A stretch of 41,959 bases of DNA, taken from the IMG/VR virus record IMGVR_UViG_2690316153_000014, positions 1 through 41,959 of that record; one strand, 5' to 3'. Positions 1 to 28,561 of the stretch are shown in pieces (positions within the stretch are counted from its first letter, which is position 1; every line of letters starts with the position of its first letter). Below the pieces are notes generated by a model that was given only the letters and a program-made list of their open reading frames with translations, was not told the DNA's origin and ran no database searches. Source of the stretch: a virus (Duplodnaviria; Heunggongvirae; Uroviricota; Caudoviricetes). The position numbers were made by a program, and so were the translations under genes.

Positions 1-307
1 TATTTACGCAACGCAGGTCGATGGCTGCGGATTGCGGATATTCTTCTTTGTCGATCCAGTTTTTGTTAATGGATAAATCCATCAATTTGTGGACATTTTC
101 GTCGTCCCAGGTCTGGCAGAAAGTGGCCAGGTTCTGACGAGCGTTGCCATCAAGATATAATTCGTCATTGATAATCTGGAATGCGACATCGTCGCGCATT
201 TCGTGCAGCGGAAAACGTTTTGATTCTGCGATAGTGGAAATAGACTTCGCACCAAAACGTGAATCGAGTAGTTCCGACCTTAAATCCGTTACTTGCTTCT
301 TATCCAT
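1..307 (-). CDS. gadB: glutamate decarboxylase GadB, N-terminal part only (gene continues beyond the window start)
   Basis: Reverse-strand translation from the ATG at 305-307 reads [63 protein letters not shown]..., which matches the GadB N-terminus from memory (GadA would start MDQKLLTDF). AAGGAG Shine-Dalgarno on the reverse strand at 314-319. Absent from the ORF track because it is cut by the window edge. Confidence 0.85.
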
Positions 308-386
308 TTTAAACTCCTTAAAATGATTGGATCGCATTAAAAAAGTAGGATTTATCGATAAAGTAAGCAAGTGCAAAGGACTCGTG

Positions 387-406
387 TTTAAATAACAAAA
401 TCCTAA
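387..406 (-). promoter_or_regulatory. GAD box (GadE/GadX-type 20-bp element) in the gadB promoter
   Basis: Reverse complement of 387-406 is TTAGGATTTTGTTATTTAAA, the conserved gad box, about 80-100 bp upstream of the gadB start codon. Confidence 0.7.
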
Positions 407-628
407 TGTTATTTATCGTGAGATATTACGCGAATAATATTTTTTCATTGAAAAACAATGCAATATGAAATTCTTGGGTGGTGGTAAGGTGTTTTATGCT
501 GTTATTTTTATGCGCATTCTGTGTCTCCTGAATTATCACGTAAAAATCAGACCTTAAAATATCACTATTAGTACTTGATTATTATTTTGAACGCATTTAT
601 AAAATTATTACATAAAAATAGCGAATAT

Positions 629-662
629 TGCTAAAATCCCCGCCAACGATGTGTTGACGGGG
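629..662 (-). terminator. intrinsic terminator downstream of pqqL
   Basis: 10-bp stem (638-647 with 653-662, one G-U pair on the minus-strand RNA), 5-nt loop, followed on the minus strand by AUUUU...; begins 7 nt after the pqqL stop. Confidence 0.5.
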
Positions 663-668
663 CTGTTA

Positions 669-3464
669 TTATTTTGGCAATAATACTCCGGTATAAGTAT
701 TTACCGGATAAGAAAGATATTGTTTAACGGCAGTGTTAACATTCTCTACCGTCATTTGTTTCAACAATTGCTCCTGCTCAGTCCATGCTGCAGGATCGTC
801 ATATTGAATAAGACTATTTACAATAGTGTTCGCTAATTGTTGAACGCTACGCTGTTGGATATCGAGGCTGCGCTGAACGTTTTGCTGGTATTCATTCAGT
901 TCTTGCTCACTGATCCCTTTAGCCAGACGCTTAACCATCACTTCATTCGCTAACGTTAACAGTTCATCATGTCGTTCTGGTTGACAAGTAAAAGCCAGCA
1001 AATGACTGATATCTTTGGCCTGAGGATCAACCGAGAGGCGAGAAGAAACGCTGTATGCTCCAGATGCCTGTTCACGAATATTAACACGTAGATCTTTTGC
1101 CAGTGCGACGTTAAAAGCATCGAGCGCCATACGCGTCGCCAGATTAACAGGTGTCCGGGAATCATAACGCTTCCACTGTGAAACCTGTGCCACAGGTTCA
1201 TTTTGTTCTTTTACAGTAACCGATGCGTTGTCCGTCGTGCGAGTTAATGGTTTACCTGCGGCTAATGGCGAATCAGAGTGTTTGATTGATCCTAAGTAAC
1301 GCGTAATTAACGCCACGAGTTTGTCTTCTGAGACATTACCGACAATGACAAACGTGATATCCGCTGGAGATGAAAACAACTGGCGATCGGCAGCCAGCGC
1401 ATCTGCGGCAGTAAACTGTACAATCTGATTTTCTTGCAGTAATTTCGTGCGGTCATCAGCATAGCGCGTCTCAAACATCTGCTGGGCGAATTTCTCCGCT
1501 GGACGCTGGTCGAGCGTTTTCAACGCCTGAATTTGAGCATTTTGTAGCGATGCCCAAATATTGTCGTTAATCGTGCTGTGGGTGATTCGCTGGTTAATCA
1601 ACTGAAAACCAGGTTCAGGGTTATTAGTCCGCGCGCTAACGGAGAGCAACGTATTCATGCCACTGACTTTACTGCTCATGGTTACCGAATTTTCCGCACT
1701 CCAGCGTTTCAGGCTGGAAGAGGAGAGCTCACCAACGCCGCTTCCGCTTACTGCTTTATTTGCCAGCGCGATAAGTGATTTTTGCTGCGCAGGGAAACTT
1801 AAATCGCCTTTATTCGATACGGCAGTAATTTGTAGCTTTTGCTCTTCACCCGCGGATTTTGCCAGAATAACCCTGGCACCATTGGAAAGTGTTAATGATG
1901 TCAGATTCTCAGCCAGCGTTTCTTTGCTGCTAATTTCCGCCTGTGGGTCAGCGTCTACTGTTAACGATAAATTTCTGCCTGGGAAGATGTAAGCCGCCAG
2001 CTTTTTGTTGGCGTACTCTTTTTCCAGCGCCAGGATAGCCGCAGGAGACAATGCTTTTTTGGCGGCAAGCTCATTGTTTACCATTTGCTCCCAAAATGCG
2101 TCCTGGTTCTTTCTTAACTGCTGCCATTTTTCCGCCAGACTTTGCACGGTAATTTGCTGCCACAGATGTTTCGAAAGTTGATATGTCTCTTCCGGCGACA
2201 AGAACGGCGTATTATTTAATGAGCTGGATGCCAGGCGACTGGTCAGCATACGTAAATCACGTTCAGCTTGCTGATCAACCGCATTTTTCAGCCAGGTGAG
2301 GCGGGTAGATTTGACATCATCGAGTTCTTCAGCAGAAAAACCATGCTGATCAATGGTTGCCAACTCTGCCATTAATGCATTCGCAGCATCCTGCATATTA
2401 TCGTCTCGTGCATTTACACGGAAAAACAGCGACTGATAATCGGGTGCAAATTTAACGCTGCGCGCAGTGCCGCCAGAAATAGTCTTCAACTCGCCCGACT
2501 GTATGCGTTCCTGCAGACGTTGATTGAACAGCTGAACTAACATGCTCCATTCAGCTTGTTCGATAAAGCTTTGCTCATCGTTCACTTGTACCATTGGCAG
2601 GCGATAATAGAGTGCGATGCCGTTCACCCGGTTTTCTTTATCATTAATGATATTAAAGCGCAGGTGGTTTTCGGCTTTTGTCGGCCAGACGCGATTTTCA
2701 GCTGCTTTGTTAGCCGGAAGCTTACTTAAATTATCCTTTATCAGCGCCAGCGCTTCTTTACTGTCGATATCGCCGACCACGATAAAGGTCATATTATTTG
2801 GTTGATACCAGCGTTGATAAAATTGGCGCAATTGTGCCGGTGTGACCGTGGCGACAGTATCCATCAGGCCGATAGGTTCACGGTCTAAATTACGGGTATT
2901 AGCCAGCAGGAAAGGGCGGCGCGCCTGAGAGGTGCGCCATTTCGCATCCTGATGGGCACGCCATTCCTCAGTAATTACGCCACGTTCAGCGTCTACTTCG
3001 AGTTTTTCAAAGGTTGCGGCATTACTCCATTCACTGAAGATTGCCATCACTTGTTGCAGATTTTGTTTCTGCGTAGTCGGCAAACTCACCTGATACACCG
3101 TTTCGTCATAGCTGGTATAGGCATTAACATCGCGACCAAAACGCAGGCCCATTGACTCAAATGTTTCGATGACTTTATTACCCGGCCATGTTTTTGTGCC
3201 GTTAAACATCATATGTTCTACAAAATGAGCTACGCCGCGCTCATTGTCTTCTTCCTGCAATGAACCGGTATGAATTTGCAGCCATAAATTTACCTGATCC
3301 TTTGGATGAGCATGCGGATAAATCATATATCGCAAGCCATTGCCCAGTTGCCCGGTAATTAACTTTTCATCCTGCGGTAAGGCGGCGGCAATCAGCCGCC
3401 CGGGGAGCAACAGAGTTGCCACTAACGTCAGTAAGAAACAGAGGTTTCTCATAATTATCTCCAT
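669..3464 (-). CDS. pqqL: periplasmic zinc metallopeptidase, M16 family (PqqL)
   Basis: 931-aa ORF with signal peptide and the inverted zinc-binding motif HFVEHMMF...E; length and synteny (gadB-pqqL-yddB-yddA) match E. coli PqqL. Confidence 0.9.
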   Translation of the reverse strand: MEIIMRNLCFLLTLVATLLLPGRLIAAALPQDEKLITGQLGNGLRYMIYPHAHPKDQVNLWLQIHTGSLQEEDNERGVAHFVEHMMFNGTKTWPGNKVIETFESMGLRFGRDVNAYTSYDETVYQVSLPTTQKQNLQQVMAIFSEWSNAATFEKLEVDAERGVITEEWRAHQDAKWRTSQARRPFLLANTRNLDREPIGLMDTVATVTPAQLRQFYQRWYQPNNMTFIVVGDIDSKEALALIKDNLSKLPANKAAENRVWPTKAENHLRFNIINDKENRVNGIALYYRLPMVQVNDEQSFIEQAEWSMLVQLFNQRLQERIQSGELKTISGGTARSVKFAPDYQSLFFRVNARDDNMQDAANALMAELATIDQHGFSAEELDDVKSTRLTWLKNAVDQQAERDLRMLTSRLASSSLNNTPFLSPEETYQLSKHLWQQITVQSLAEKWQQLRKNQDAFWEQMVNNELAAKKALSPAAILALEKEYANKKLAAYIFPGRNLSLTVDADPQAEISSKETLAENLTSLTLSNGARVILAKSAGEEQKLQITAVSNKGDLSFPAQQKSLIALANKAVSGSGVGELSSSSLKRWSAENSVTMSSKVSGMNTLLSVSARTNNPEPGFQLINQRITHSTINDNIWASLQNAQIQALKTLDQRPAEKFAQQMFETRYADDRTKLLQENQIVQFTAADALAADRQLFSSPADITFVIVGNVSEDKLVALITRYLGSIKHSDSPLAAGKPLTRTTDNASVTVKEQNEPVAQVSQWKRYDSRTPVNLATRMALDAFNVALAKDLRVNIREQASGAYSVSSRLSVDPQAKDISHLLAFTCQPERHDELLTLANEVMVKRLAKGISEQELNEYQQNVQRSLDIQQRSVQQLANTIVNSLIQYDDPAAWTEQEQLLKQMTVENVNTAVKQYLSYPVNTYTGVLLPK

Positions 3465-3508
3465 GCGAAAACCGGGCGAATTTACCCGGTTAAGTAAAAT
3501 CCGAACTA

Positions 3509-5881
3509 TTAAAATTTCATGCTGACATCAAGCCAGAAAGTACGGCCACTGGCGTAGGTCGCCACACCGGTATTCGTTGTATCAACAGCGGTTTTGCTAT
3601 CCAATACATTGAGAATATCGGCACTGATCGTCAGGTTTTGTTGTTTCAGAAATTGTGGCGTCCAGGACAAGCGGGTGTCCCAGGTCAGGCTGCTATCCAG
3701 TTTTTCGTCAACATACTGCTTGTAATCTGAATATTCGCTGATGTATTGCGCATTTGTCTTACCCAGGATAATGCGAGCTTTACGCGCTTCTTGCCAGGCC
3801 AGCGTATTCGCCCACACTAACCCGCTCGGTTGATGCGTGAAATCCATGTTTAAGGAGATCTTTAATGGGTTATTAAAATCTGCCACTGGAACGCTATCGT
3901 AAGAGACCAGATTACCGTTATAAACCACCTGGTTATCACCGGTATTGCTCTCCTCATAACCATTGTTTAACGACAAGTTGCCCTTGCTCTTGATATAGCT
4001 AAAGACAATTTGTGGGTTAATATCTACCTGGCGGATATGCAGGGGTTCGGCCAGTTCAAAACTGAGGCTGAACGAATGCGTTTTGGTTTTGCCATCGTTG
4101 TTATATTCAGTAATGGTGGTTTTAGTCGCGCTGTCGGTACGACTGCTTTTGCTTATTTGATCATGCGCTTCACGGTAAACATAGTTTGCACGCGCAATAA
4201 CGTTCTTACCGATTTTCTGCTGCAATCCCATTGCCAGTTCATCGTTATAAGGCGTTTTCAAATCCTGATAACGCGTCAGAGTTTTATTACCTGATACCGA
4301 TTCCGTCCAGCTATTGCGGATATCACGTAATCCCATATCAAGAATATTCCCGCCATAGTAACGGTTATAACCTGCTGTAATCATTGAGGTTTGATTAGCA
4401 AAAATATCCCATTCCGTCATAAAGCGCGGGGAGATATTGTGGTTTGACAGATAGTTGTCATAGTCATACCGCACGCCGGGCATTAATGACACATTACGCC
4501 AGCTAATGCGATCCGCCATATACAGCGTGTAGTTGTCAATTCCCAGGCTGCCTTTACCTTTATGGTAAATGGTATGGTTAGTTTTCTTTCCGGCAGCATT
4601 AATCACATAGGATTCAGACTGGTTATGGCGTTCAGTCCACGCATCGGAATAGATGTATTCCGCGCCGAAGTAGGGTTGATGCGAAACATTACCCACGGCG
4701 AATTTTTGTCAGTCCAGGCGTGTTTTGAAGGTGTAATTATCTACAGCCTGGGAAATGTGTCCTAATCCGCCACGGGTGCAACGCCCTGTAATATCACCAT
4801 ATGTACATGAAAGTTCGGTGTACCAGATGTCATGATCGTGACGGGTATAATCACTAATATGATCCCAACCAACGGTGGTACGTAGTTTGGCCCATGCGAG
4901 CTGCGTATCCATATCCCATGCCAGACCATAGGATTTATTACCCATTTCGCGATCAGACTGCGGGAAGGTGCTGGTATTATAATCACGGCTGGAGCCGGTA
5001 TATTTTAAGGTTAAATCGTGGGTAAAGCGGTCGCTGGCAAACCAGGTAAATTTGCTCAATGCGGTATCGATAACGTTTTTATACTGTGCCCGACCGGCGA
5101 CAATGCCGTCATTCGAAACATAATCCGCGCGGGTGATATCAGACTGGCGGCGCGATAAACCGGCGGTAACGCCAAAGTTATCAGCGAGTTCCTGATTAAA
5201 CGACAAGGTATAAAAGTTCTTTTTAAAATCTGGGGAGTAATAAGTACTTCCTGAAGAGCCTTGATTAAATGCGCTCTTGTTATTCTCATCGATATGCGAT
5301 GTTAACCAGTCCGAACGCGTAGTGCGATAACCCAGTTTCACGCTGCTATCATCAGCGTTGAAGCGTTTGATCTTTGCATCAATTACCCCGCCATTGAAGC
5401 GACCGAATTCAACCGGCACAAAACTGTCATAAAGCGTCACATTGTCCAGTAAGCTGACATCAAGATAATACCCCTGTGACATCCCGCTAATATTGGTTGC
5501 ACTACTGGCATCGGACTCATTCGCTGGGTTCAAGTTATTAGTGGCACTAATACCGTCAATCAAATAGGCATTCTGATAGGGCGACGCACCGTGAATAGAG
5601 ATTTTCTCCGGGCGAATATCTCCCTGGTTCAACGAGGTACTTTGCGTTGAATCCATGCGTACCGCAGGGTTGGTTCTCAGCAGATCGCTGATATTGCCAT
5701 TCCCGGTCGGTAAACGCTCGATGCTTTCACTGGTGTAATGCGTGTTGCCGTTTACGGGTACAGGGACAGGAGCATAGACCGTCATCTCTTCAAAAACATG
5801 CATGTACATGTTTTTGTCATCGACGGCCTGCGCCACATCAGCGCCACATAAAATGACGCCAGGAATAAGAACTCGCTTCAT
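3509..5881 (-). pseudogene. yddB: TonB-dependent outer-membrane receptor YddB interrupted by an in-frame TGA at 4709-4711 (track ORFs 4709..5881 and 3509..4696 are one frame)
   Basis: Both ORFs are in the same reading frame; 791 codons span the region, matching the 790-aa YddB. N-terminal part has a signal peptide and plug-domain features, C-terminal part ends in the terminal Phe typical of a beta-barrel. The only interruption is one opal codon (revcomp of tca at 4709-4711). Confidence 0.75.
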
Positions 5882-5918
5882 TTATTTATATCTCCGTACA
5901 GCAGGGCTTTTATTGTTT

Positions 5919-7604
5919 TTATAAAACCGCGCTAATGTCACAAATATCATCTGCCAGGTTCCAGACACCGGGTTGATGTGTAACCATAATGACGCCGCTT
6001 GTGGGTAGTTTTTCACGCACTAAACGCAGTAAGCGGATAGCCTCTTGTTCCTCAAGATGAGAGGTAGTTTCGTCAAGAAATATCCATTTCGGACGTCGTA
6101 AAATTAATCGTGCCAGGGCGATACGTTGTTTTTCGCCGCTGGAAAGAATATCTCCCCAGCGATCGTGGTCATGAATACGCGCAGCCAATTTCCCCAGACC
6201 AACCTGATGCAGTACTTCGCTCAACGATTTATCGTCTACGGGCAGGGGAAGTGCTTTACAAATAATCTCTTTCAGTAAGCCGCTTTTGATTAACGGTGTT
6301 TGTGACACATACCAACTGTCAGCAGGAGAAGAAATATCACCTTTAAACCACGGCCAGCAGTGGGATAATGTTTTAAGCAGTGTGGTTTTTCCCGCACCAG
6401 AGTAGCCTTTCAGTAATAGCCATTTGCCTGGCGAAACATGAAAGTTCAAGTTCTCTAATATGATCTTATTATCAGGCGTACGAATACTCGCATTAGCCAC
6501 TTGTACCGCATGTTGGCAATTTTTAGGCTTATTCGTAGGGCGCTGTTCAGTGAGTTGATGGAACTCATACAAGCGATCGATAACCGCAGCCAGCTCAGCA
6601 AGTTCGTCATATTTATAAATAAACCAGCTTAAATTGTTCGATACCAGCATAAATGCCTGGCGCGATTTCATCAGTCCGCCCAGATTGATCTGCCCGCAAA
6701 TAAACTGCGGCAATAACAGAAAGTAGGGAAGAACGCTAAGCGAGCGCGAATAAATATTCTGCCAGTAATCAAGCCACCGCTGACGATTCATTAAACGATG
6801 CCAGTTCTCTTTAATGGTATGAAAATTGTCGCTCAACTCCTGGCGTTGTAGAGACTCAGCATTGCTTAGCGCAATCAGTTCTGCCTGCTTATTATGCTGC
6901 ACAAGATTTGTTCGAAATGTCGCTTCGCTACGTTGTTTTTCCACATTAAGCGGACGAATACGTTTACCAACCTTATGGGTAAATAAAGTTCCACCGATCA
7001 CAATGAGCACAACGGTATAGACCATATACCCCTGGATATTCCATTCTGTTCCACCAACAGTGAATGAGAGCGTACCCGCGCTTTGCCAAAGAATAACGGT
7101 AAAGGTGATCAGCATGCTAAGTGACTGGATGAAGCCAAATGAAAGGCTGAGCGTTTTGCTGATCAGTAAGAGAATGTCTTCAGCGATACGTTGGTCAGGG
7201 TTATCTGTATTTTTATGCTCGCCGTAGATCTGCGTGAAGTAGTAGTTTTTATCTGCAAACCACCGATTAAGGTAGTAATCTGTTAACCATTCGCGCCAGC
7301 GAATAGTCAGTAGTTTAATTAACCATGTTTTGTTTACGGATATTAATACAAAGATCCCCAGCAGGGCAGGGAACCAAAGGACAAGCTGCCAAAGCTTATC
7401 GGTTTCTTTCTGGCTTAGCGCATTGAAAAAATCATTATTCCAGTCGTTTAACCAGACCTGAATTTTAACCACGCCAAGGATCATGGCGAGGATAATAATG
7501 ATTAACAACACTGAAGTTTTATTATTCTTACGCAGCCAAAAGGGCTTCAGCAGACAGAGATACTTTGCTATCAACATACAAAACGTAATGGGAATGGTTA
7601 TCAT
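5919..7604 (-). CDS. yddA: fused permease/ATP-binding ABC transporter YddA
   Basis: 561-aa ORF with N-terminal hydrophobic segments and C-terminal Walker A (GYSGAGKTT), ABC signature (LSSGEKQR) and Walker B (IFLDETTSHL). Confidence 0.9.
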   Translation of the reverse strand: MITIPITFCMLIAKYLCLLKPFWLRKNNKTSVLLIIIILAMILGVVKIQVWLNDWNNDFFNALSQKETDKLWQLVLWFPALLGIFVLISVNKTWLIKLLTIRWREWLTDYYLNRWFADKNYYFTQIYGEHKNTDNPDQRIAEDILLLISKTLSLSFGFIQSLSMLITFTVILWQSAGTLSFTVGGTEWNIQGYMVYTVVLIVIGGTLFTHKVGKRIRPLNVEKQRSEATFRTNLVQHNKQAELIALSNAESLQRQELSDNFHTIKENWHRLMNRQRWLDYWQNIYSRSLSVLPYFLLLPQFICGQINLGGLMKSRQAFMLVSNNLSWFIYKYDELAELAAVIDRLYEFHQLTEQRPTNKPKNCQHAVQVANASIRTPDNKIILENLNFHVSPGKWLLLKGYSGAGKTTLLKTLSHCWPWFKGDISSPADSWYVSQTPLIKSGLLKEIICKALPLPVDDKSLSEVLHQVGLGKLAARIHDHDRWGDILSSGEKQRIALARLILRRPKWIFLDETTSHLEEQEAIRLLRLVREKLPTSGVIMVTHQPGVWNLADDICDISAVL

Positions 7605-7894
7605 TAGCGAAAATTGATTGTGCCATCCAATGATTATCTATGGCAATGATTTACTGATGAAATTTATTTAAGTATCATTTAACAATATGAAATATAAAGG
7701 AATATTTCATTTTCAGTGGTTATGGTTATGCTATTGATAATCAAGGGTATTGCTAATGCCCTGACGCATACCACGTAAGCCAGGATTTTCGCAAGGGAAG
7801 ATGATGATGACGAAACACCCGACAGGAATTTATGTCGGGTGCCTTGTTAAGGTCATAAGAAGGAGGCTAAGAATGGAGTTAAAAGAGAGCGTTA

Positions 7895-9052
7895 TTAATT
7901 ATTCTCCATTTGTTTTGCAACATCCATAATGTGGTAAAGCGGTACTCTGTTCTTAGCTAACTCCACCATGGCGTTCATATAAGGTACCATGGTTGAAAAA
8001 AGGATTTTATAACCTTCGCAAAAATAAGAAACAGTCTCATTGTTTACTTTAGTAATACGATGCTTAGGACAACCGCCATTGCAGATAGGTTTATATGCAC
8101 ATTGCTGACATTTCGCTGAAATCCGTTTTTTTTGCGCTGTCAGTTGTACACTGTTCATCGTTTTGAGTTCAGATTTATTAATGTTTCCAATTTTGTACTG
8201 TGGATAGACAAAATGGTCGCATTCGTAAATGTCTCCATTACTTTCAACAACCAGATTATCCTTGCAGGACTCCTGGAAAATACAACTTGTATGCCCATTC
8301 CCCAAAAAACGGCTGACAAAGCTTTCAAACTGACGAATGAAAATTTCACCCACATCGTTTTTAACCCATTGCATAAAAATGGTTGACATAAACTTGCCAT
8401 AAGCCGTGGGAGGCACAGAAAAATCAATGATACGGAATGTGTTCTCACTATGACCACTGAAATCAATATTCGGCGTCCCGGTTTCGAGCAATTCGATAAA
8501 TTGCATATGTTTACTGCCGATAGATTTTAAAAAATGATAAACCTCAAGAGGGTAATGGACATTAACGTTATTAATGACGGTTAACGTATTAAACTCAACT
8601 TGATATGATTTCAGACGCTCGATGGCTGCTATCACTTTTGCAAAAGTACCGTTACCTGAATTACTGCGTCTGTAACGGTCATGTAACTCCTGGGGGCCAT
8701 CGATCGAGATACCAACCAGAAATTCATGTTCTTTGAGAAAGGCACACCATTCATTATTCAATAAAATGCCATTCGTTTGTAATGCATTAAAAATACGTTT
8801 TTGGCCTGCATAGCGTTGTTGATAGTGAATAACTTTACGGAAAAAATCCAGGCCAGCCAGAGTGGGTTCACCGCCTTGCCAGGTAAAATAGACCTGATTG
8901 CCAGACGCTGCGATATATTGTTTGATGAACTCTTTCAGAGTACTGTCATCCATCCATTTTTCATGAGTAAACTGCGACTCTTTTTCAAGGTAAAAACAGT
9001 AATCACATTTGAGATTACATTGAAAACTGGAGGGCTTGGCTGTAACGTGCAT
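7895..9052 (-). CDS. ydeM: radical-SAM anaerobic sulfatase-maturating enzyme homologue YdeM
   Basis: CNLKCDYC radical-SAM cysteine motif near the N-terminus plus C-terminal cysteine clusters. Start placed at MHVTAKP (385 aa); the track ORF begins 5 codons earlier at 9067. Confidence 0.85.
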
Positions 9053-9103
9053 CGCTATCTCGCTCAATAAGGCGGCGGAAAATTCCGCCGCATGAAGGTT
9101 TAG

Positions 9104-10786
9104 TTATTTCGCTTCGCTTAGTGCTTTCTTGATATTGTTAAACTTCTCCTGATTTACCTCGCTAAGCGGTGGCTGGCTGCTGTCGATAAACTCTCTTACC
9201 ACGCCTTGCATCTCTTTAACGACCTGCGGATTGGCGGCGGCAAGGTTATCTTTTTGCTGTAGATCCGTCAGTTTGTAGAGACCTAACTGATTGTTTTCTA
9301 CTGTATAGACAAGCGAATAATCGTTATTTCTCACCGTATAAGAGAATTGGCTTAAGTCCTCAGTGTTGGGGTTATGCGGGTAATCGTCTGACTGATGGCG
9401 AACAAATTTGTGGTAATTATCCCAGAATGGAATATTTTCCTCGTCAAACCAGTGAGAATAAGAGGTTATCCAGGTCAGATTTTTATGTGGCTCGCCTTGT
9501 TTCTTATCTTGCAACCAGGGCAGCAAGGAAACGCCATCCAGCTTAAGGTCTTTTGGAATGCTGATATCGGCTGCATCAAGAGCTGTCGGGTAGAAATCCA
9601 TTGCGGAAATCAGCTTGTCATAATTACCGGGTTGAAGTTTTCCTTTCCACCACATAAACATTGGGGTGTGAGTACCGCCAGGATAGGTCTGACTCTTATA
9701 GCCTTTTTGCGCCCCGTTCAGCGGCAGAGGACCATCGATAACCGCACCATTATCGGAGGTAAAGAGAATAATTGTATTGTCATACTGTCCGTTTTTCTTC
9801 AGTTGTTCGAGAATGCGTTTTACACCCTGATCAACAGAATAAACGGAAGCGTAGTAGTTATCTGCTGTTTGACTACCGGTATTAAATTGCTTCTGATATT
9901 GATCCGGTGCAGGATTATCATTTGGCAGGTGCGGAGCATTATAAGCCAGGTAAAGCATAAAAGGCTGGTCAAGTGTTTTGGCACGATCAACAACGCCAAT
10001 TGCCTCATCGGTTAACTGATCGCTGATATAACCTTTTGCGGGGACACGTTCACGATTTTTGAACAGTGAAGGGGAGTTGTAATATGCCGTTCCTGCAGCG
10101 TGGAATCCCATAAAGTAATCAAAGCCACGGTTTTGAGGTTGCCATTCTTCCGCAGAAAATGTGGTGAAGTTGTCATGATAGTCACGCGTTTGTTTATCTT
10201 CCGGTACCGGCACATTACTGATTTTTGACAAGTGCCATTTACCTACTGCTGCAGTGTAATAACCATGATTCTGGAATAATTCAGGCAAGAAAGTTTCTGT
10301 TAGCGGAATACCATCCTGAGCATCGGTATTGGAATAGACACCAAAGCGGGCGGGAGCTCGACCGGTCATTATTGCGGCACGGGAGGGGCCGGAAACACCG
10401 TGTGCCACATAGCCGTTAGTAAACCGTACGCCTTCATCCATTAATGAAAGGAGCGTCGGCGTTGATTTTTGTGCAGCTTCAATGGCTTTATCTATCCCTA
10501 TTTTGTAGGTATCGACAACTTCACGATTTTCCATTGTTTTTGGGTCAAAAGATCCCTTATCAAAAGGAAGTTGTCCATAACCAAGATCATCCATGGTTAG
10601 TACGATAATATTTGGCTTTCCTTTGGTACTGTATTCAGTCGGCGTAAAGTCTGAGAAAGCAACGTTTGTTTTGGTTGCTTTCAGCTTTACATCATCTGCC
10701 GCATGAGCAGCAAATGCAGCCATACCAGATGCCAGTATCAAAGATATCGAGGTACTTACGACACTTTTCTTTAATGCAGACTTCAT
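9104..10786 (-). CDS. ydeN: putative sulfatase YdeN (secreted)
   Basis: 560-aa ORF with signal peptide (...AAFAAHA) and sulfatase-family features; directly downstream partner of the maturase gene. Confidence 0.85.
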   Translation of the reverse strand: MKSALKKSVVSTSISLILASGMAAFAAHAADDVKLKATKTNVAFSDFTPTEYSTKGKPNIIVLTMDDLGYGQLPFDKGSFDPKTMENREVVDTYKIGIDKAIEAAQKSTPTLLSLMDEGVRFTNGYVAHGVSGPSRAAIMTGRAPARFGVYSNTDAQDGIPLTETFLPELFQNHGYYTAAVGKWHLSKISNVPVPEDKQTRDYHDNFTTFSAEEWQPQNRGFDYFMGFHAAGTAYYNSPSLFKNRERVPAKGYISDQLTDEAIGVVDRAKTLDQPFMLYLAYNAPHLPNDNPAPDQYQKQFNTGSQTADNYYASVYSVDQGVKRILEQLKKNGQYDNTIILFTSDNGAVIDGPLPLNGAQKGYKSQTYPGGTHTPMFMWWKGKLQPGNYDKLISAMDFYPTALDAADISIPKDLKLDGVSLLPWLQDKKQGEPHKNLTWITSYSHWFDEENIPFWDNYHKFVRHQSDDYPHNPNTEDLSQFSYTVRNNDYSLVYTVENNQLGLYKLTDLQQKDNLAAANPQVVKEMQGVVREFIDSSQPPLSEVNQEKFNNIKKALSEAK

Positions 10787-11116
10787 AAATGTTCCTCTTC
10801 TTATTGTACTTAATTCCGAAGTAATTTTACGAAGAGAAATAAGTGGGTGTAAGTGAAGTTAGTCACATAAAGAGATAGCAGATTTAGCTAAAAAAAGGGA
10901 AATAACAGTCCATAAAGCGTTGACATTACTTTCTGTTCTACTAAGTAATTTCTTGCCGATAAACAACTAATCTATTGATATTTAATAAATTATTGCATTT
11001 TACTGACAAAATGCCGAATTGAGATCATAAATAATCATGCAACAGGTTATGCAAATGCATAAATATGTGATGAATGTCACTTATTTATTTCAATAAATAT
11101 ATCACCTAAAAACAAC

Positions 11117-11153
11117 GCGGGGCAGGGAATGACTGCCCCATTTTTAATTTTTA
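11117..11153. terminator. bidirectional intrinsic terminator between ydeO (3' end) and the ydeN upstream region
   Basis: Perfect 7-bp GC stem GGGGCAG/CTGCCCC (11119-11125 with 11133-11139), 7-nt loop, U-runs on both strands. Confidence 0.5.
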
Positions 11154-11189
11154 CGTAGGGTGCGTGGTTGACTACTCGTTAGCAAATAA

Positions 11190-11951
11190 TCAAATAGCTA
11201 AAGCATTCATCGTGTTGCCCGTATTCATACCCATGTGACTTTGACAACGGTACTCCTTAGAAACTCTCTTCGGACTGTTGCCGAAATGTTTGCGGAACGC
11301 ATAAATAAAATAAGATGTACTGGCATAACCACATTGTTCGGCAATTTTATTGACTGAACCTTCTACGCGTATCAAATTTTTTGCGTGCTGCATTCTGGCA
11401 TCTAATAGAATCTGTGAGAATGTCGTTTGCTCTTGCTTTAGTTTTTTCTTCAACAGGCTTTCACTGATGTACAGGCAGTCACAAATATCTTTCAGCTTCC
11501 ATGGGTGCGCCAGCTTCATGTTGACAATATTTCTCACTTTCCCGGAAACGGATAGCACACCGTTAGTTAATAGTGTAATGAAACCTTTGCATGCGGCAAA
11601 AATAGACAGGCAAGAAAAAAGCAAAAGTTCTGAAAAATTATGATGATTGCGTTCTTCCGAGTTGAGATAAGCAATCATTTCATTAAGCAATCCAGTCGGT
11701 ACATTTGAAGCACGTAAAAACTTCGCAGGAACAGGCATCGTCACTGTCTGGATGTTAGTGCATTGTAGATATTTTTTAATGGTATTTTCATTAAATCCGA
11801 TTTCTTTAAAATGCCGCTCATAAGGTTCAAAATGTGTACGAACAGCGTTATCTACCATCAGGATCTCGCCGTCAGAGAAGGCGTAATCTTTATCTAAAAT
11901 GTTAGCGTTGAAAGCATGATGAATAAATATGACAGAACAAACGAGCGACAT
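11190..11951 (-). CDS. ydeO: AraC-family acid-resistance transcriptional regulator YdeO
   Basis: 253-aa ORF with a C-terminal AraC-type HTH region; conserved position downstream of safA. Confidence 0.9.
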   Translation of the reverse strand: MSLVCSVIFIHHAFNANILDKDYAFSDGEILMVDNAVRTHFEPYERHFKEIGFNENTIKKYLQCTNIQTVTMPVPAKFLRASNVPTGLLNEMIAYLNSEERNHHNFSELLLFSCLSIFAACKGFITLLTNGVLSVSGKVRNIVNMKLAHPWKLKDICDCLYISESLLKKKLKQEQTTFSQILLDARMQHAKNLIRVEGSVNKIAEQCGYASTSYFIYAFRKHFGNSPKRVSKEYRCQSHMGMNTGNTMNALAI

Positions 11952-12025
11952 TTTATCTCCTTAAAACAATAAAGTTTTTATCGATACTTTGTTAACATTT
12001 CAGATTTATAATTTGCTGTTTATTA

Positions 12026-12223
12026 TCAGTCTTGCAAACTATTGATAATGAAATGTGTAAGATCTCTTGCAATGCGACCCATTTCTGAAATACCCAGCTG
12101 ATCAATTGCCGAAAAAATGGCTATCAACGTAAGGGTCAGTAATAAGACAACCACAATTACAGACATGATTTCTTTATAGTTGTCTCTTTGCGTGATTTTG
12201 TTTTTCACTGTGGTCGCATGCAT
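12026..12223 (-). CDS. safA: small membrane connector protein SafA (EvgS/EvgA to PhoQ/PhoP)
   Basis: 65-aa ORF MHATTVKNKITQRDNYKEIMSVIVVVLLLTLTLIAIFSAIDQLGISEMGRIARDLTHFIINSLQD with one transmembrane helix; directly upstream of ydeO. Confidence 0.85.
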   Translation of the reverse strand: MHATTVKNKITQRDNYKEIMSVIVVVLLLTLTLIAIFSAIDQLGISEMGRIARDLTHFIINSLQD

Positions 12224-12334
12224 TTCAAATATGTTTATTTAGCGGATAACGTTAAAAATCGTTAATCAGTATGCTTAATATAACAGGCTGGAGAAAAGAG
12301 GAAATAGGACTGGCACTTCAGTACTGAGCGGAGT

Positions 12335-12352
12335 TTCTTACAGCTGTAGGCA
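12335..12352 (-). promoter_or_regulatory. EvgA box upstream of safA-ydeO
   Basis: TTCTTACA-GC-TGTAGGCA matches the EvgA consensus TTCYTACA-N2-TGTRGGAA; about 110 bp upstream of the safA start. Confidence 0.65.
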
Positions 12353-12470
12353 GAGGTTTATATCTTATAGTATGTAGTTTAATTTAATCCATGTGAGCAA
12401 ATTGCGCGATAATAGTCAATGAGGGATTCTTCTGCTGTGCGGATGACAGCAGAAGAAATGAGAAGAGGCA

Positions 12471-14750
12471 TTAATTTGATGGTTCTAATTCAACCGGAAT
12501 ACTTTTATAGCCAGGAATGCCACTTAATGGATCGTGGTTATCGAGTGTTAGCATGTGATTCGATTCTGGAAAATAGGTCACCAGTGAGCGGTCAGCCATA
12601 GGGTAAATGACCACTTTTAATCTATCCATGCGGCGTGAGCTACGTTTACCGTCTGGCGTGAGCGCAATAAGATTAACTCTTTCGCCGTTTTTTACACGGC
12701 AAATTTTAGCTTGTTTAGCACTCATAAAGACCACATCTCGTTGACCGAATACCCCTCGATAGCGATCATCCATACCATAAATCGTCGTGTTGTACTGATC
12801 GTGGCTGCGTACTGTCGCCATGACCAGCTTACTGTTAAACGCTGAAGAGGGATCTTCTAACAGCCCTTTGCTGGTAATGAAATTAGCCTTACCTGACGGC
12901 GTCATCCAGCGCCTTTCAGCAGCTGCATTTATCAGGTGAAAACCACCGGGATGACGGATGCGTTGGTTATAGTCGGCGAACTCTGGCAGCACAGCTTCAA
13001 TGTCATTGCGAATGCGATCATAATCTTCCACCAGATACTCCCAGGCTACCACGCTCTGGGGTAGTGCTGCCTGCGCGATTCCCGCGACCACTGCACACTC
13101 TGATTTCAGCATTACACCGGCGGGTTTTAACACGCCACGCGAGGCATGAATCATCGACATTGAATCCTCAACGGTTACCGCCTGCGCACCGCTTTTTTGC
13201 ATGTCAATCTCGCTACGTCCCAGAACCGGCAGAATATAGCTATGCCGTGCGGTCAGCAGATGAGAGCGGTTAAGCTTAGTGGCTACGTGTACCGCCAGAT
13301 CTAATTGCGTTAACGGTACAGCGCTCGCTTCCCGATCTGGCATTGCCAGTGCAAAGTTGCCCCCCATGCAGATCAATGCTCGAGCCTGCCCTGTACATAT
13401 TGCTTGCATGCTGGCAATTGCAGCATGTCCAGGTGCTTGAGGTGGTGTGAAGCCATAGCGCTCACCCAGGCGAGCCAGAAACTCTGCAGACGGTTTCTCG
13501 GTGATACCGACGGTTCGGTCGCCCTGTACATTAGAGTGGCCACGTAGTGGGCAGATACCCGCACCAGGCTTGCCAATGTTACCTTTCATCAACAGCAGAT
13601 TGACCAGTTGCTGTACATTCTGGGTACCATGTTCGTGCTGAGTGATCCCCATTCCGTAACAGATAATGGTGCGTTCGGCAGCGGCATATGCGTCAGCCAG
13701 TTCGGCGATTTGTGTCTGACTTAGTCCAGAAATACGTTCGATATCTTTCCACTCGGAATTGAGAACGTCACGGCGTAGCTCGTCAAAGCCGACGGTATGC
13801 GTTTGAATAAATTCGTCATCAAGCAATGAGGGCCGACCTGCGGCACTTGCAGCATCATCGCGCTCAATTAACAGGCGCATCATCCCCTTGAGCAACGCCA
13901 TATCGCCACCAATGCGCACGTTGTAGTAGGCACTGGCCAACTGAGTCTCAGAGTTCGTCAGCATTTCAAACGGGTTTTGCGGTGCGGTAAATCGCTCCAG
14001 GCCACGTTCCTGTAGAGGATTGATGGCGATCATTTTCGCTCCCCGTTTCACTAAAGCGCGCAACGAAGTCAGCATGCGAGGGTGGTTTGTACCAGGGTTA
14101 TGCCCAATGCAAATGACTAAATCGCACTTCTCAAAGTCTTCCAGCAACACAGTCCCTTTACCCACGCCGATACTCGCTGCCAAACCCACACTGGTCGGTT
14201 CATGGCACATGTTGGAGCAGTCGGGAAAGTTATTGCTCCCGTATTCACGGGCAAAAAGCTGATAAAGAAAGGCAGCTTCATTGGAAGTGCGGCCCGAAGT
14301 ATAGAATTCAACCTGATTGGGATCACTATAGCTTTGAAGGCGTGCGCCAATTTCGTCGAAAGCTTGTTGCCAGCTTAATGGCTTGTAACAGTCGCTGACG
14401 GCATCATATTTCAAAGGCTGAGTGAGACGTCCCGCAGCCTCAAGCTCGTGATCTCCCCAGGTAAGTAATGATTGAACCGTATTCTCAGCAAAGAAAGAGG
14501 CATTTACCTGCTTATCCGTGACTTCCCAGGCGATTGCTTTTGCGCCGTTTTCACAAATGTCGAATGACGCACTGTGCTTAGGATCTGGCCATGCACAACC
14601 CGGACAGTCAAAGCCCTCTGGCTTATTCATGTCAAACATGGCAATAACATCCTGGCGTATATCCATCTGCTTACGTACTGCATTCGCTACGGATTTAACA
14701 GCACCCCAACCACCTGCAGCACCCTGGTAGGATTCAATTTTTTTCTTCAT
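12471..14750 (-). CDS. ydeP: molybdopterin-dependent oxidoreductase YdeP (acid-resistance protein)
   Basis: 759-aa ORF with formate-dehydrogenase-like molybdopterin oxidoreductase features (N-terminal Cys cluster CPGCAWPDP); length and position match YdeP. Confidence 0.9.
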
Positions 14751-14993
14751 CTACTTATCCTGTGTGGAAATGAATTATTAGGATTTGTAATAGCGATGAT
14801 GCACAGTACATACAAAGGGATTATCGCCAACATGGATATATAAGAGTAGGGGACTACTCTCTTTCTATTTTTAATCTATTATCGTTAAACAATAGATTAA
14901 ATACGATAAGTTAAGCATCATCTCTCATAGTGTTTAAATTAACATATTTTTCAATATAAAAAATAAGACTCTGGCTTCAATTGTGCGCGGATT

Positions 14994-15011
14994 TTCTTAC
15001 AGGTGTAGGAT
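14994..15011 (-). promoter_or_regulatory. EvgA box upstream of ydeP
   Basis: TTCTTACA-GG-TGTAGGAT, a second near-consensus EvgA inverted repeat, about 245 bp upstream of the ydeP start. Confidence 0.65.
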
Positions 15012-15083
15012 AATAGCCTTCACAAAATAATTATCCGCGCAATTTTCGTGAATGGAGCGCATAGACTAAGATCAAAATCACAA

Positions 15084-15998
15084 TTATTCATAGATAAAAG
15101 TGACACCAATGACTGACTGGACGGTTCCGGCTGCAACCTTGTTTCCTGTTTGTCCATAGGTTGCGCTTAAACCCAGAGGTACTTTGCTTTTATTTACTGT
15201 CCCCAGGGAGACATTTTCTCCCGTAGCCAGTATTTTTCCATTACGCATCAGAGAGACACCCACTCCCGATGCTTTTGTTGCATCAGGTGCTGTGTTAGCA
15301 AACACTTGTCGGCTACTGTCAGTGGTGGCACCCGAAAGATAAAATGAGAGCTTTTGTTCGCTTGAGCAATATACGCCAAGGGGTATTTCTGCGCTTCCAG
15401 GAAAGTCCGGGAGATCCACAGTGACATTACGACTATCAACGGTGCAGCCGCCTGTTGGCATAACAACATTGTTATTTGAAATAATATTCCACGTAAAATT
15501 ACGCGGATTTCCGCTTCCTAATGTTGCAATTTTATACATATGAATACGAGCAATGACTTCCCCCGCTTTTATGACAACTCCACCGGCCGCCCCAACTGGG
15601 GTAATATAGAGTTTTAACGGTAATGGCATCGGTCTCTTATCACCAATATCCAATACGTTGGTATTTGTCGTCAACGGGAAGGGGTAGGTCACATTATTCC
15701 AGTACAGCGATCCTTTATATGACTGTAGGGAGCCTGCGAAAGCTGAGCCTTGTACCAGGTTTATATGATCAGTGTCGTACCAGCCGCCGTAATCATTCCA
15801 GCAACTTATATGCTGAGACAAGTCTACAACCAGATTCTGGCCCGGCTGTATTACAGGGTCGAGATTAACATAAACAGAGGTTGTACCTGCTCCAATACTT
15901 GACCCGCCATCGACATTACAACTGAAGGCAAAAACTTTGCCTGCCATTAATAGAAGATAAATACCGAACAGGACCTTTATACTGATTGTTTTACCCAT
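15084..15998 (-). CDS. ydeQ: FimH-like two-domain fimbrial tip adhesin (F9/Yde fimbriae)
   Basis: 304-aa ORF with signal peptide and a C-terminal pilin domain ending in a beta-strand motif; last gene of the fimbrial cluster. Confidence 0.8.
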
Positions 15999-16056
15999 GA
16001 TATATCCTAAGGTTAAAAATTGATTTAAAAAGAAGGCTAAGAAAATCGAATCGACG

Positions 16057-16560
16057 TTATTGCCAGGTGTAGATCACATTGATTAGCGCCTCGATCGTTC
16101 CCTGGCTTGCGTTTCCATTCACCGTGATAGCTCTTGCCTTAAGTGGAAACTGTGCATTACGAGTGATCTCATCAACAATAACCGTTTTGCTATCGCCATT
16201 TTTTAACGCAGCATCCTGGTCATCCCTCAGCTCTATCTGAATATTTTCGGCAGTACCTTCATTTTTGTAATAACCCGTATTGTCAGTTGAACCTGTCACG
16301 ATTGCCGTCACTGCACTTGTTTCAACCGGACAATCGGTTAATGACAAAGTAATATTGTGCCAGCCAGATGCAGAACCAGGTTGTTGCAGATTGCGCGTAT
16401 AAAGATCCCCGAGATTAACGTTAGCTTCTTTGGTTTGAATAGTGCAGGGTTTAGCGACTACCCGACCATTAACAGTGATAGTGACATCGGCGGCCTGGAG
16501 AGTTGCTGTGAATAACGCGCAAAACGTAGCTAACAGGAACCTCTTGTGAAGTCTTTTCAT
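16057..16560 (-). CDS. ydeR: FimG-like minor fimbrial subunit
   Basis: 167-aa secreted pilin-like ORF with signal peptide and Cys pair. Confidence 0.8.
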
Positions 16561-16572
16561 ATCTGACTCTGA

Positions 16573-17103
16573 TTATTGAAATTCAAGGGTAAAGGTTGCC
16601 GAAGCCCTCACCAGTCCCGGATTGACGGACTTCTGAGTTGACTTCAGACGAGCGGAGTAAGGCAAAATATTGTTCTGTTCTGGTACCAGTGGGATCCACT
16701 GCATCCCGGCATGAAGGTCATTCAGTTTCACCGGACGCATATTTGCGTCCAATATTTCTATACCCAAACCGGAGGCCGTATTGCTTCCTTCATCCAGTTT
16801 CAACAAAGTATTATTTTCTGCATCCTCAATACCGTTAAATGCAACCCGAACCCCCGTTGTCCCTTTGCTGCATTCACTTAACGTAATCTGAAAAGGGACG
16901 ACTGGACTTGTGCTACCGGTCGTTGGAAATTGTCTGGCACTGTTTTTTTGGAGATCTACGGTAAAATTAAGCGAATCCGATGAGACTGTGCAGCCATAAT
17001 CGAGGACGCGCCCGCTAATTTTAATAACGCTATCTGCGGATAAAGCAGAATAGGTGGTTAACCCCAGACATAAACCGAGGAAAATAATGTTATTGTATTT
17101 CAT
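16573..17103 (-). CDS. ydeS: FimF-like minor fimbrial subunit
   Basis: 176-aa secreted pilin-like ORF. Confidence 0.8.
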   Translation of the reverse strand: MKYNNIIFLGLCLGLTTYSALSADSVIKISGRVLDYGCTVSSDSLNFTVDLQKNSARQFPTTGSTSPVVPFQITLSECSKGTTGVRVAFNGIEDAENNTLLKLDEGSNTASGLGIEILDANMRPVKLNDLHAGMQWIPLVPEQNNILPYSARLKSTQKSVNPGLVRASATFTLEFQ

Positions 17104-17116
17104 AATCTATTGTTCC

Positions 17117-19768
17117 TTAGCGACAGATTGCTGTCTGCTGGTTCAGTAAGGTACCAGGAGAAACTTCAGGAAGCTTGTACTCGACAATACAGTTTGAGTT
17201 TTTATCTTTGCCCCATGAAACCTGTAATTTCCCTGACTGTGGAAGTCCAGTCAGATAAACCTGACCGTTTTCTGCGACAATGCTGCCATTTTTATTCTCT
17301 CCGTGTGTGACAATTGCACCGAATGGAACGCTCTTATTACCGTACTTCAACGTCATTAATACTTTCCCGCCGATTTGTGCATTAAATGTTGCTCTGGCAA
17401 TAGCACCGTGAGTTGGGATGACAGTGACCACGGTTTCATCCAGTTCAACATTATCTGCAAGGGAATTCGCGTTAAGAGCAACACGGTTTTCTCTATATTC
17501 TGTCGCAAATGGTAATATGGCATAGCCACGCCAGTCGGTATGAATTCCGGTCTGGTTCTCTATTTTGACATTATCAGCGCCAGGAGCCTTAACCAGAACC
17601 ATTGTGTCGCCCAGCGGCTGTCCAAAGGTGATGCCATCAGCATGAGCAATAATCCCACCACTCATTCCGTAATAAATCTGGCTGCTGTCACCATTCCGAC
17701 TGTAACCGACATTCGTATTACCGTAAGCTCCACGATAATTAAGAGAACTGTAACCACTGGTGCCAGACGATGTATTACCTCCGTGGGTGTTACCGACCTG
17801 AACGCTATAATTCAGGTTATTATCCGGCAGCAGAGTGCCATAAACCCCCGATAGATTGGTCATGCCGCCTTTCAAATCGTTTGACATACTGTAACTGGCG
17901 TTTGAATTACGAAATGCCGACTGACTGTCTGTACGCATCCAATGACTGAAGGGAACATTAAGCGTAAAAGCGAGTAAATGATCCCGATCGTTTTGCCATA
18001 TATTATTGGAATAGCTGTAATTCAGCGAAGTCGTAATATCACCAAACGGCACATTTAATCCAAATGATATTTGCTGGTCGCTGCGTGACGTGTTCCAGTA
18101 ACTTTGGCGACTGGCACTGAAAAATGTCGTACCGTAATTTCCAAGCTGCTGAGAGATGCTTATTTGTTCCTGACCACGCTTACTGTAGAATAGATTAAAA
18201 TAATCAATAAATTGTGTCTGCTCATTGGTGTCTCCGGTAGGAGGCTTGACGGTGTAACCACTCATTCGACTGTAGGCACTGTCGGATAAGTTATAAAAAC
18301 CTTGCGTAGAATAGCGATATCCTGCGACCTGGATATTGGTTCCTGTCTGGTAGAAGGATTTGCTGTAGACGGATTTAACCGATTGCCCGCTGTGACGGGT
18401 GCCATCTGCAAGTGTCGTATTGGCCTGCGTGATATCGAAAGAAAAGGCACCAAAAAGTCCTAAATCTTTACCAATACCAAGGTTGAAGGCCTGATAATCT
18501 TCTGCAATTTGCATTCCGCCATAAGGTGTCCAGTTTCCTTCCAGTCCATGCATCAAGCTACCTTGTATGAACTTGGGGGAGCTTTGCAGGTTATTTCCAC
18601 TACGATATTCCCCCATGGCAAGCGCATAACGCGTATATCCAGCACGTTGGAGAACCGGAACAGACGAATAAGGAACATATAATGTCTGAATACTGCCGTC
18701 TGCCTCTTTTATGGTTACTTGCAGATCACCACCATTGGCGGCAGAGTTGATATCATCAATAGTAAAAGGGCCGGGTGGAACAGTAGTCTGATAAACATCG
18801 TATCCGTTCTGTTTTACACTCACTTGTGCGGTGCCACGGGCAATACCATGAATCACCGGAGCGAAACCATGTTGGCTATCGGGCAACATCGCTTCTGTTG
18901 AATTTATTTTGAGGCCACGAAAGTTCACACTATCAAAAATATCGCCATCGGTATAACTATCACCTACCGTTAACCGTGAGCGTAAGGGAATAATGTCACG
19001 TTCAGCCGACGTATTGATATGCTGCCATTTATTGCTGTTAGATGAATTGCTACTCCCACTGTTATAACTCCACGTTGAGTTATCGCGCAGTCGCCAACTA
19101 CCAATGTTGATGCCACTCTGTAAATTCAAATATGCATAGTTGGATTTTCCTGCATTATGGTTACTACGATTATTAATGGAATTACCATTAAAACTATGAT
19201 TTAGAAGCCCAGCATTTATTCCTTCTTCCCACAGTTCAGGAGAAACATAGCCGCGAGCCATTCTGCCAACATAAATTTGCGGAACGGAGAGTGACAAATG
19301 TTGCTGACCAACATCAAACTCAGTTGATGCGTCGGCCAAACGATCCTGAAGTGGTGTGCATGCGCTGTTGTCCGGCACATGTTTTTCTGCAGAATGTTCC
19401 TTATTGTCTAATAACGCAGATTTTTTTATGCCAAGACTGACAAGAAGGTCTGTACTCAGACATGGGATGAGATCTGCGTTATTATCATCTGCAATAAAAG
19501 TAATATCCCGACTAGTCATAAATTCGTCGTTCAAATAAATGTCGACCCGATATGTACCAGGTGGTGCCTCGCGTCCCTTAGTAAAGGCGGATAAATCGAC
19601 AGATTCAGCAAGATCATTGCTTAAAAACCGTGGATTAAAATAATACTCTGCATCAACGGGAAAAACCGCAGTTGCTAAGCCAAGGGCAATGGTAAGCCGT
19701 GCAAAGCGTGGTAGTATTAACACCTGATGCATACGATATGCCTTAAATGCGGCACGAAAGGCTGTCAT
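17117..19768 (-). CDS. ydeT: fimbrial outer-membrane usher (FimD family), apparently full length
   Basis: 883-aa ORF of FimD-like size and composition; the real start may be the internal Met (MHQVLIL..., coordinate 19732) that precedes the signal peptide. Confidence 0.8.
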   Translation of the reverse strand: MTAFRAAFKAYRMHQVLILPRFARLTIALGLATAVFPVDAEYYFNPRFLSNDLAESVDLSAFTKGREAPPGTYRVDIYLNDEFMTSRDITFIADDNNADLIPCLSTDLLVSLGIKKSALLDNKEHSAEKHVPDNSACTPLQDRLADASTEFDVGQQHLSLSVPQIYVGRMARGYVSPELWEEGINAGLLNHSFNGNSINNRSNHNAGKSNYAYLNLQSGINIGSWRLRDNSTWSYNSGSSNSSNSNKWQHINTSAERDIIPLRSRLTVGDSYTDGDIFDSVNFRGLKINSTEAMLPDSQHGFAPVIHGIARGTAQVSVKQNGYDVYQTTVPPGPFTIDDINSAANGGDLQVTIKEADGSIQTLYVPYSSVPVLQRAGYTRYALAMGEYRSGNNLQSSPKFIQGSLMHGLEGNWTPYGGMQIAEDYQAFNLGIGKDLGLFGAFSFDITQANTTLADGTRHSGQSVKSVYSKSFYQTGTNIQVAGYRYSTQGFYNLSDSAYSRMSGYTVKPPTGDTNEQTQFIDYFNLFYSKRGQEQISISQQLGNYGTTFFSASRQSYWNTSRSDQQISFGLNVPFGDITTSLNYSYSNNIWQNDRDHLLAFTLNVPFSHWMRTDSQSAFRNSNASYSMSNDLKGGMTNLSGVYGTLLPDNNLNYSVQVGNTHGGNTSSGTSGYSSLNYRGAYGNTNVGYSRNGDSSQIYYGMSGGIIAHADGITFGQPLGDTMVLVKAPGADNVKIENQTGIHTDWRGYAILPFATEYRENRVALNANSLADNVELDETVVTVIPTHGAIARATFNAQIGGKVLMTLKYGNKSVPFGAIVTHGENKNGSIVAENGQVYLTGLPQSGKLQVSWGKDKNSNCIVEYKLPEVSPGTLLNQQTAICR

Positions 19769-20295: not shown

Positions 20296-20351
20296 TGATC
20301 TTACCCAGCAATAGTGGACACGCGGCTAAGTGAGTAAACTCTCAGTCAGAG

Positions 20352-20660
20352 GTGACTCACATGACAAAAACAGTATCAACCAGTAAAAAACCCCGTAAAC
20401 AGCATTCGCCTGAATTTCGCAGTGAAGCCCTGAAGCTTGCTGAACGCATCGGTGTTACTGCCGCAGCCCGTGAACTCAGCCTGTATGAATCACAGCTCTA
20501 CAACTGGCGCAGTAAACAGCAAAATCAGCAGACGTCTTCTGAACGTGAACTGGAGATGTCTACCGAGATTGCACGTCTCAAACGCCAGCTGGCAGAACGG
20601 GATGAAGAGCTGGCTATCCTCCAAAAGGCCGCGACATACTTCGCGAAGCGCCTGAAATGA
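20352..20660 (+). CDS. insE: IS3 OrfA (InsE-type HTH transposase subunit)
   Basis: 99-aa [34 protein letters not shown]... with HTH and leucine-zipper-like C-terminus. Confidence 0.9.
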
Positions 20661-23393: not shown

Positions 23394-23394
23394 T

Positions 23395-28556: not shown

Positions 28557-28561
28557 CCATC

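Follow-up and report, generated by a model that had tools for sequence, protein, structure and literature searches.

Evidence that a 20-bp element at the left end of a 41,959-bp window is the GAD box of the Escherichia coli gadBC promoter

Introduction

Which regulatory element lies at positions 387-406 of this DNA, which proteins would bind it, and how much of the surrounding sequence does it place in a known genomic context? The element is found near the left end of the window, by which we mean the whole 41,959-bp stretch of DNA that was analysed. An earlier note had described it as an exact 20-bp GAD box upstream of a partial gadB gene, as a binding site for GadE and GadX, and as an anchor for the orientation of everything to its right. 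We conclude that 387-406 is almost certainly the GAD box of the chromosomal gadBC promoter of E. coli, an activator site for GadE-RcsB centred at -62.5, with binding and activation as would be expected from experiments in strain K-12. The sequence identity of the site, its genomic context, its geometry, and its conservation are established in the present analysis, and the coordinates are collected in Table 1. The GAD box itself is already known, and is textbook biology.

An exact GAD box upstream of a truncated gadB gene

The minus strand of 387-406 reads TTAGGATTTTGTTATTTAAA (plus strand, TTTAAATAACAAAATCCTAA) and agrees with the GAD box at 20 of 20 positions, being letter for letter the characterised GadE site and 20-bp consensus TTAGGAttTTgTTATTTAAa (PMC4918353). 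A pattern search that permitted up to 3 mismatches returned this single match in the window. The 20-mer did not occur in any of 100 dinucleotide-preserving shuffles, which corresponds to an in-window chance expectation of 0, and no open reading frame of at least 40 amino acids overlapped the box when both strands were checked.

The box is followed on the same strand by a glutamate decarboxylase gene, with 80-99 nt between its bases and the A of the gadB ATG, at 307 on the minus strand. The reading frame that opens at this ATG continues past the left end of the window, and its translation is the N-terminus of GadB, residues 1-102; the window begins inside gadB, at codon 102. The alignment by which the earlier note had proposed to check its reading, that of positions 1-700 to the gadB-pqqL region, gave 100% identity to many complete E. 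coli chromosomes in which this stretch carries the annotations gadB and pqqL, and this part of the window was matched in all 5426 of the 5426 E. coli genomes in the collection. K-12 MG1655, where the gene order is gadC, gadB, pqqL, yddB, differs from the window upstream of gadB by 1 nt across the 361-bp spacer. Both the exact box and its placement ahead of a partial gadB were thus described correctly.

As E. coli carries a paralogous promoter, we considered whether the locus could instead be that of gadA, in which the box and its spacing are the same and the coding sequence is nearly identical. However, the translated N-terminus is MDKKQV, as in GadB, where K-12 gadA has ATGGACCAGAAGCTGTTA (MDQKLL). 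The upstream neighbour is pqqL and not ccp, which together with gadX flanks gadA in K-12, and the sequences on either side of the box match K-12 gadB, not gadA. An assignment to gadA therefore has a negligible probability, and we treat the promoter as that of gadB throughout.

Table 1. Positions of the features discussed, numbered from the first base of the window.
Feature	Position	Strand	Basis or remark
gadB, 5' part, codons 1-102, truncated at the window edge	1-307 (bases 2-307 coding)	minus	Translation; gadB annotation in K-12 and all top E. coli matches
gadB 5' leader with Shine-Dalgarno sequence AAGGAG (published CsrA-binding GGA motif)	308-333	minus	Sequence
Putative gadB transcription start (+1)	334	minus	gadA primers and gap-free gadA/gadB alignment; agrees with ChIP-exo -62.5
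-10 hexamer TACTTT, 3/6 to consensus	342-347 (-13 to -8)	minus	Read from the sequence, given +1 at 334
RcsB (repressor) box CGATAAATCCTA, abutting the -10	about 346-357 (probable limits)	minus	Description in PMC2887963 and gadA/gadB alignment
Spacer between -35 and -10, 17 bp	348-364 (-30 to -14)	minus	
-35 hexamer TTGCTT, 3/6 to consensus	365-370 (-36 to -31)	minus	Read from the sequence; spacing of PMC2887963
Gap between box and -35, 16 bp	371-386 (-52 to -37)	minus	
Predicted location of the GadE ChIP-exo footprint (box and 6 bp of either flank)	381-412	minus	Coordinate offset and gap-free K-12 alignment
GAD box TTAGGATTTTGTTATTTAAA	387-406 (-72 to -53 relative to the putative gadB +1)	minus	Exact, unique match; same as the published site
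Upstream GadX/GadW region, equivalents of the GadX peaks at -184 and -225	498-579	minus	PMC4918353 Supplementary Table 3
Intrinsic-terminator-like hairpin that bounds the gadB regulatory region on its upstream side	638-662	minus	Folding energy
Tyrosine integrases	25671-26942 and 28598-29776	minus (both)	
DEAD/ResIII helicase	36953-38611		
Zinc-ribbon toprim primase	38613-39581		

Geometry of the gadB promoter

Placing the published gadA primers (-101 to +24; PMC2887963) on the K-12 gadA sequence puts +24 four bases ahead of its ATG, and the ATG at +28, behind a leader of 27 nt. Between box and ATG the alignment of gadA with gadB is free of gaps, so that with a leader of this length the transcription start of gadB would fall at window position 334, by transfer from K-12. 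Computed from this start, the centre of the box lies at -62.5, and the box, its 16-bp distance from the -35, and its position relative to the start reproduce the published geometry: the GAD box has been placed 16 bp upstream of the -35, with a DNase footprint on gadA from -50 to -76 (PMC2887963), and has been described as a 20-bp sequence 63 bp upstream of the start sites (PMC6128205).

The gadB promoter was not picked up by a generic sigma-70 promoter scan of positions 1-720, because in each hexamer only 3 of 6 bases agree with the consensus, a quality that fits an activator-dependent promoter. The -10 hexamer was nonetheless unchanged in all 8 E. coli lineages compared below and in gadA. Just upstream of it lies an RcsB box that is kept in gadB except for a C in place of a G at its left end (PMC2887963), and this G/C difference, adjoining GATAAATCCTA, is visible in the gadA/gadB alignment. 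Further downstream, toeprints of CsrA extend across the Shine-Dalgarno sequence of gadB (PMC11210196).

On the far side of the spacer, right after the pqqL stop codon, the minus strand can form a hairpin with a 10-bp GC-rich stem (-18.6 kcal/mol, z = -5.4) that is followed by AUUUU. A consensus terminator scan missed it, yet it is probably the terminator of pqqL, which would insulate the gadB promoter. A separate hit of the terminator scan, on the plus strand at 416-433, was set aside, there being no gene at that place to terminate.

GadE and RcsB as the probable binders of the box

Evidence on which proteins occupy this site comes from K-12. To place the K-12 GadE ChIP-exo peak in the window, at 381-412, we used an offset from U00096.2 to U00096.3 which we take to be +1975. 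The peak at gadBC covers U00096.2 1570144-1570175 and lies -62.5 from the start (PMC4918353 Supplementary Table 1). In the same study, deleting gadE lowered gadB and gadC mRNA by about 2^6, and the corresponding drop in the data set for the gadX deletion was only about 2^0.6 (PMC4918353). In vitro, GadE alone gave no protection of the box, while GadE and RcsB together protected it, the apparent constant being near 10 nM, and a G-to-C change within the box abolished complex formation and activation alike; a second RcsB box, beside the -10, is of low affinity and mediates repression (PMC2887963). These DNase footprints and electrophoretic mobility shift assays were carried out on gadA (PMC2887963) and the GadE ChIP-exo on gadBC (PMC4918353), in each case in K-12 and on an identical box sequence. 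Published accounts disagree as to whether GadE can bind by itself (PMC2887963 versus PMC13492128), and also as to whether GadX and GadW occupy the box as well (PMC6128205 and PMC13492128 versus PMC4918353).

The second disagreement bears directly on the identity of the site, since the box could mainly or additionally be bound by GadX and GadW, two regulators of the AraC family, which would compete with GadE and repress gadBC. Repression by GadX and GadW through binding to the GAD box is stated in two papers that cite work from 2001-2002 (PMC6128205, PMC13492128). The genome-wide data point elsewhere: by ChIP-exo, gadBC has GadX peaks at +66, -184, and -225, with nothing at -62.5, and no GadW peak is listed there (PMC4918353 Supplementary Table 3). 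The effect of losing gadX on gadB expression was below 2-fold, and that of losing gadE above 50-fold (PMC4918353).

The sequence of the window argues in the same direction, as the GAD box neither carries the GadX/GadW consensus AKGKCTGWTWTTWWYMYVAK nor coincides with a GadX ChIP-exo peak, as a 42-bp GadX/GadW site would. Allowing up to 2 mismatches, that consensus had one match in the window, AGGTCTGATTTTTACGTGAT at 535-554 (-220 to -201), with 1 mismatch. A match of this quality is expected by chance 0.33 times per window, and it is the position of this one that carries weight. Tramonti reportedly placed the GadX/GadW site in 2006 at about 110 bp in gadA versus about 220 bp in gadB, and the ChIP-exo table also backs the latter distance. 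We therefore consider GadX/GadW occupancy of the box quite unlikely. The GadE-RcsB heterodimer is the binder supported by the best direct evidence, all of it from K-12, and the pairing of GadE with GadX in the earlier note is a conventional label, of which the GadE half stands (as a heterodimer with RcsB; PMC2887963) and the GadX half probably does not.

By analogy with K-12, the same GadE-RcsB binding and activation would be expected in the present strain. The LuxR-family protein GadE and the response regulator RcsB would bind the box as a heterodimer, which in turn would recruit or stabilise RNA polymerase, carrying either sigma-S or sigma-70, at a core promoter that is poor in itself (TTGCTT, 17 bp, TACTTT). 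As a result, glutamate decarboxylase GadB and antiporter GadC would be switched on in acid and in stationary phase. GadX and GadW would act via separate sites some 180-225 bp upstream, RcsB at high concentration would repress through the box abutting the -10, and CsrA would act on the 27-nt leader.

Conservation of the box within and beyond E. coli

The 361-bp spacer was found in 5400 of 5426 E. coli genomes, at 90-100% identity. To follow its variation, the window was aligned with K-12 and six lineages spread down the ranking of spacer identity (8 sequences in total, chosen by overall divergence and not by the box). Among these 8 lineages, none of the 20 columns of the box varied, compared with 65 of 365 in the whole spacer. 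The stretch from the leader through the -35 was equally constant (0 of 63 columns), and 3 of the 16 columns between box and -35 varied. Taken alone, the invariance of the box within E. coli is a modest signal (P ~0.018), with 75 of 346 windows of 20 columns being equally invariant. In 5365 of 5426 complete E. coli genomes (98.9%), at least 28 nt of a 30-mer covering the box and the 10 bases upstream of it (387-416) were matched exactly.

Just upstream of the box, 33 of the 91 columns at 407-497 were variable, and the segment between the box and the GadX/GadW region (417-524) forms a hotspot of variation in the 8 lineages, flanked by the box, the core promoter, and the GadX/GadW motif as conserved islands.

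Among divergent E. coli, the 10 bases adjoining the box on its upstream side (407-416; minus strand, GATAAATAAC) vary no more than the box does, and they are not common to gadA. Footprints of the GadE-RcsB type extend to -76 to -78. It is conceivable, if rather doubtful, that the functional unit of gadB is longer than 20 bp, with 407-416 serving either as a gadB-specific extension of the GadE-RcsB site or as an overlapping site of another regulator.

When the gadA and gadB promoters of K-12 are compared with each other, the box stands out as an island of 20 identical positions out of 20 amid diverged flanks. Together with its invariance in the 8 lineages and the 30-mer count, this makes the box a conserved element of both promoters, and of Escherichia more widely, set in flanks that diverge. 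A scan for the exact 20-mer in one genome per species, 596 Gb in all, returned 25 loci. At 18 of these it was part of a gadA- or gadB-type promoter, in E. coli, Shigella flexneri, E. albertii, E. ruysiae, E. whittamii, and Escherichia sp. E1V33, as well as in one Chromohalobacter contig. Each Escherichia genome in the scan held two copies of the full 20-mer, at gadA and gadBC only. Such a scan selects loci on the box itself and does not measure its conservation, for which it was replaced by the divergence-chosen lineages and the 30-mer count given above.

The Chromohalobacter contig (L024, NZ_JAWHTP010000577.1) is 279 bp long with a coverage of 0.73 and carries E. coli gadB promoter sequence; it is probably a contamination of that assembly.

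The remaining 7 loci (L014, L016, L018, L019, L022, L027, and L028) belong to metagenome bins from unrelated phyla, mostly AT-rich, with no gad gene nearby, and these 20-mers are chance occurrences. They raise the question of whether the match at 387-406 could likewise be an AT-rich coincidence without a regulatory role, as chance matches can occur in 596 Gb. At this locus, however, the expectation within the window is 0, the match sits at exactly the published distance from gadB, and the region is, but for 1 nt, that of K-12, for which GadE binding has been measured. A chance match is thus barely credible here, and the GAD box of gadBC remains the reading on which the following comparisons are based.

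Comparison with known GadE and RcsB sites

The closest relative of the element is the GAD box of K-12 gadBC, which has the same 20 bp, the same spacing to the -35, the -10, the start, and the ATG, and the same flanking genes, in a 361-bp spacer that is 1 base apart. We see no difference of substance between the two, which are orthologous sites in different E. coli strains. The K-12 site was reportedly described by Castanie-Cornet and Foster in 2001, recognised as a GadE site by Ma et al. in 2003, and as a GadE-RcsB site by Castanie-Cornet et al. in 2010.

The GAD box of the gadA promoter, in the acid fitness island, shares the 20-mer, the distance to the start site, the RcsB box, the -10, and the architecture of the leader, whereas the 16 bp between its box and -35, and everything upstream, cannot be aligned to gadB. 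A broader likeness exists to the RcsB and RcsAB boxes of NarL/FixJ-type regulators, as the left half of the GAD box, TTAGGA, is similar to an RcsB half-site and the bound complex includes RcsB (PMC2887963). Unlike those boxes, the GAD box is asymmetric and needs GadE as a partner, while RcsB alone uses the low-affinity box by the -10 (PMC2887963). Other GadE sites (hdeA/hdeD, gadE, yhiM; ChIP-exo motif TTARGAWWWWAAATA) are bound by the same regulator and share the TTAGGA core (PMC4918353), but are degenerate versions, the full 20-mer being common to gadA and gadBC only.

Limit of synteny and mobile DNA in the rest of the window

The use of the box as an anchor for the orientation of everything to its right, as the earlier note had it, holds for orientation and gene order to approximately 18.3 kb by comparison with K-12 and 20.3 kb by comparison with strain E2865, and fails beyond this point, where an IS3-family element and an island follow. 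More precisely, the window is collinear with K-12 over 1-18,343 and with E2865 up to 20,296, and the gene order in the collinear part is gadB, pqqL, yddB, yddA, ydeM, ydeN, ydeO, safA, ydeP, and the ydeQRS fimbrial genes. E2865 shows an identity of about 99.1% past the first 700 bp and has an IS1203 that is absent from the window. The window as a whole was covered by no complete E. coli genome of the collection.

Within the collinear part, yddB (3509-5881), the gene for a 790-aa TonB-dependent receptor, contains an in-frame TGA at 4709-4711 on the minus strand where K-12 has TGG (Trp), and is split into open reading frames of 390 and 395 aa. E2865 has C for T at base 4709, and its yddB is annotated as intact. 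In the present strain, yddB is probably a pseudogene.

A fimbrial usher gene at 17117-19768 (minus strand) is full length at 883 aa, as in E2865; K-12 has only the truncated ydeT. Next to it, a gene for a PapD-type fimbrial chaperone is truncated at its 5' end to an open reading frame of 149 aa (19810-20259), the intact gene of E2865 being 711 bp. The truncated gene is adjoined by an IS3-family transposase open reading frame at 20657-21523, and it is here, at about 20260-21553, that collinearity with the references ends. No terminal inverted repeats were detected around the IS3-family element. Between this element and the integrase, two overlapping genes on the plus strand (21675-25143) encode a 572-aa protein with a HATPase_c domain and a 588-aa protein with a Response_reg_2 domain (PF19192). 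The layout of this pair is typical of island cargo, and PADLOC returned no defence-model match for it.

The remainder of the window, 25671-41959, is integrase-bearing mobile DNA that resembles a satellite or a prophage remnant, and encodes, besides the integrases, helicase, and primase listed in Table 1, an SPFH/Band 7 protein. Its match in E. coli E110019 (99.9%) lies 1.4 Mb from the gadB of that strain, and in other E. coli the island DNA past about 20.3 kb is found elsewhere in the chromosome. No tRNA gene that could serve as an attachment site is present in the window. The sole Rfam match in the window, to the STnc100 sRNA family, lies inside this mobile region, at 41380-41552 on the plus strand (108 bits, E = 8e-23).

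Implications

The present analysis adds nothing to the known biology of the GAD box, and synteny with the reference genomes stops at about 20 kb, where mobile DNA starts. The box is useful only as a positional anchor, which identifies the left end of the window as the E. coli gadB-pqqL region, where the acid-resistance promoter is intact and of wild type. Given this promoter, normal control of gadBC by GadE and RcsB would therefore be expected in the strain.
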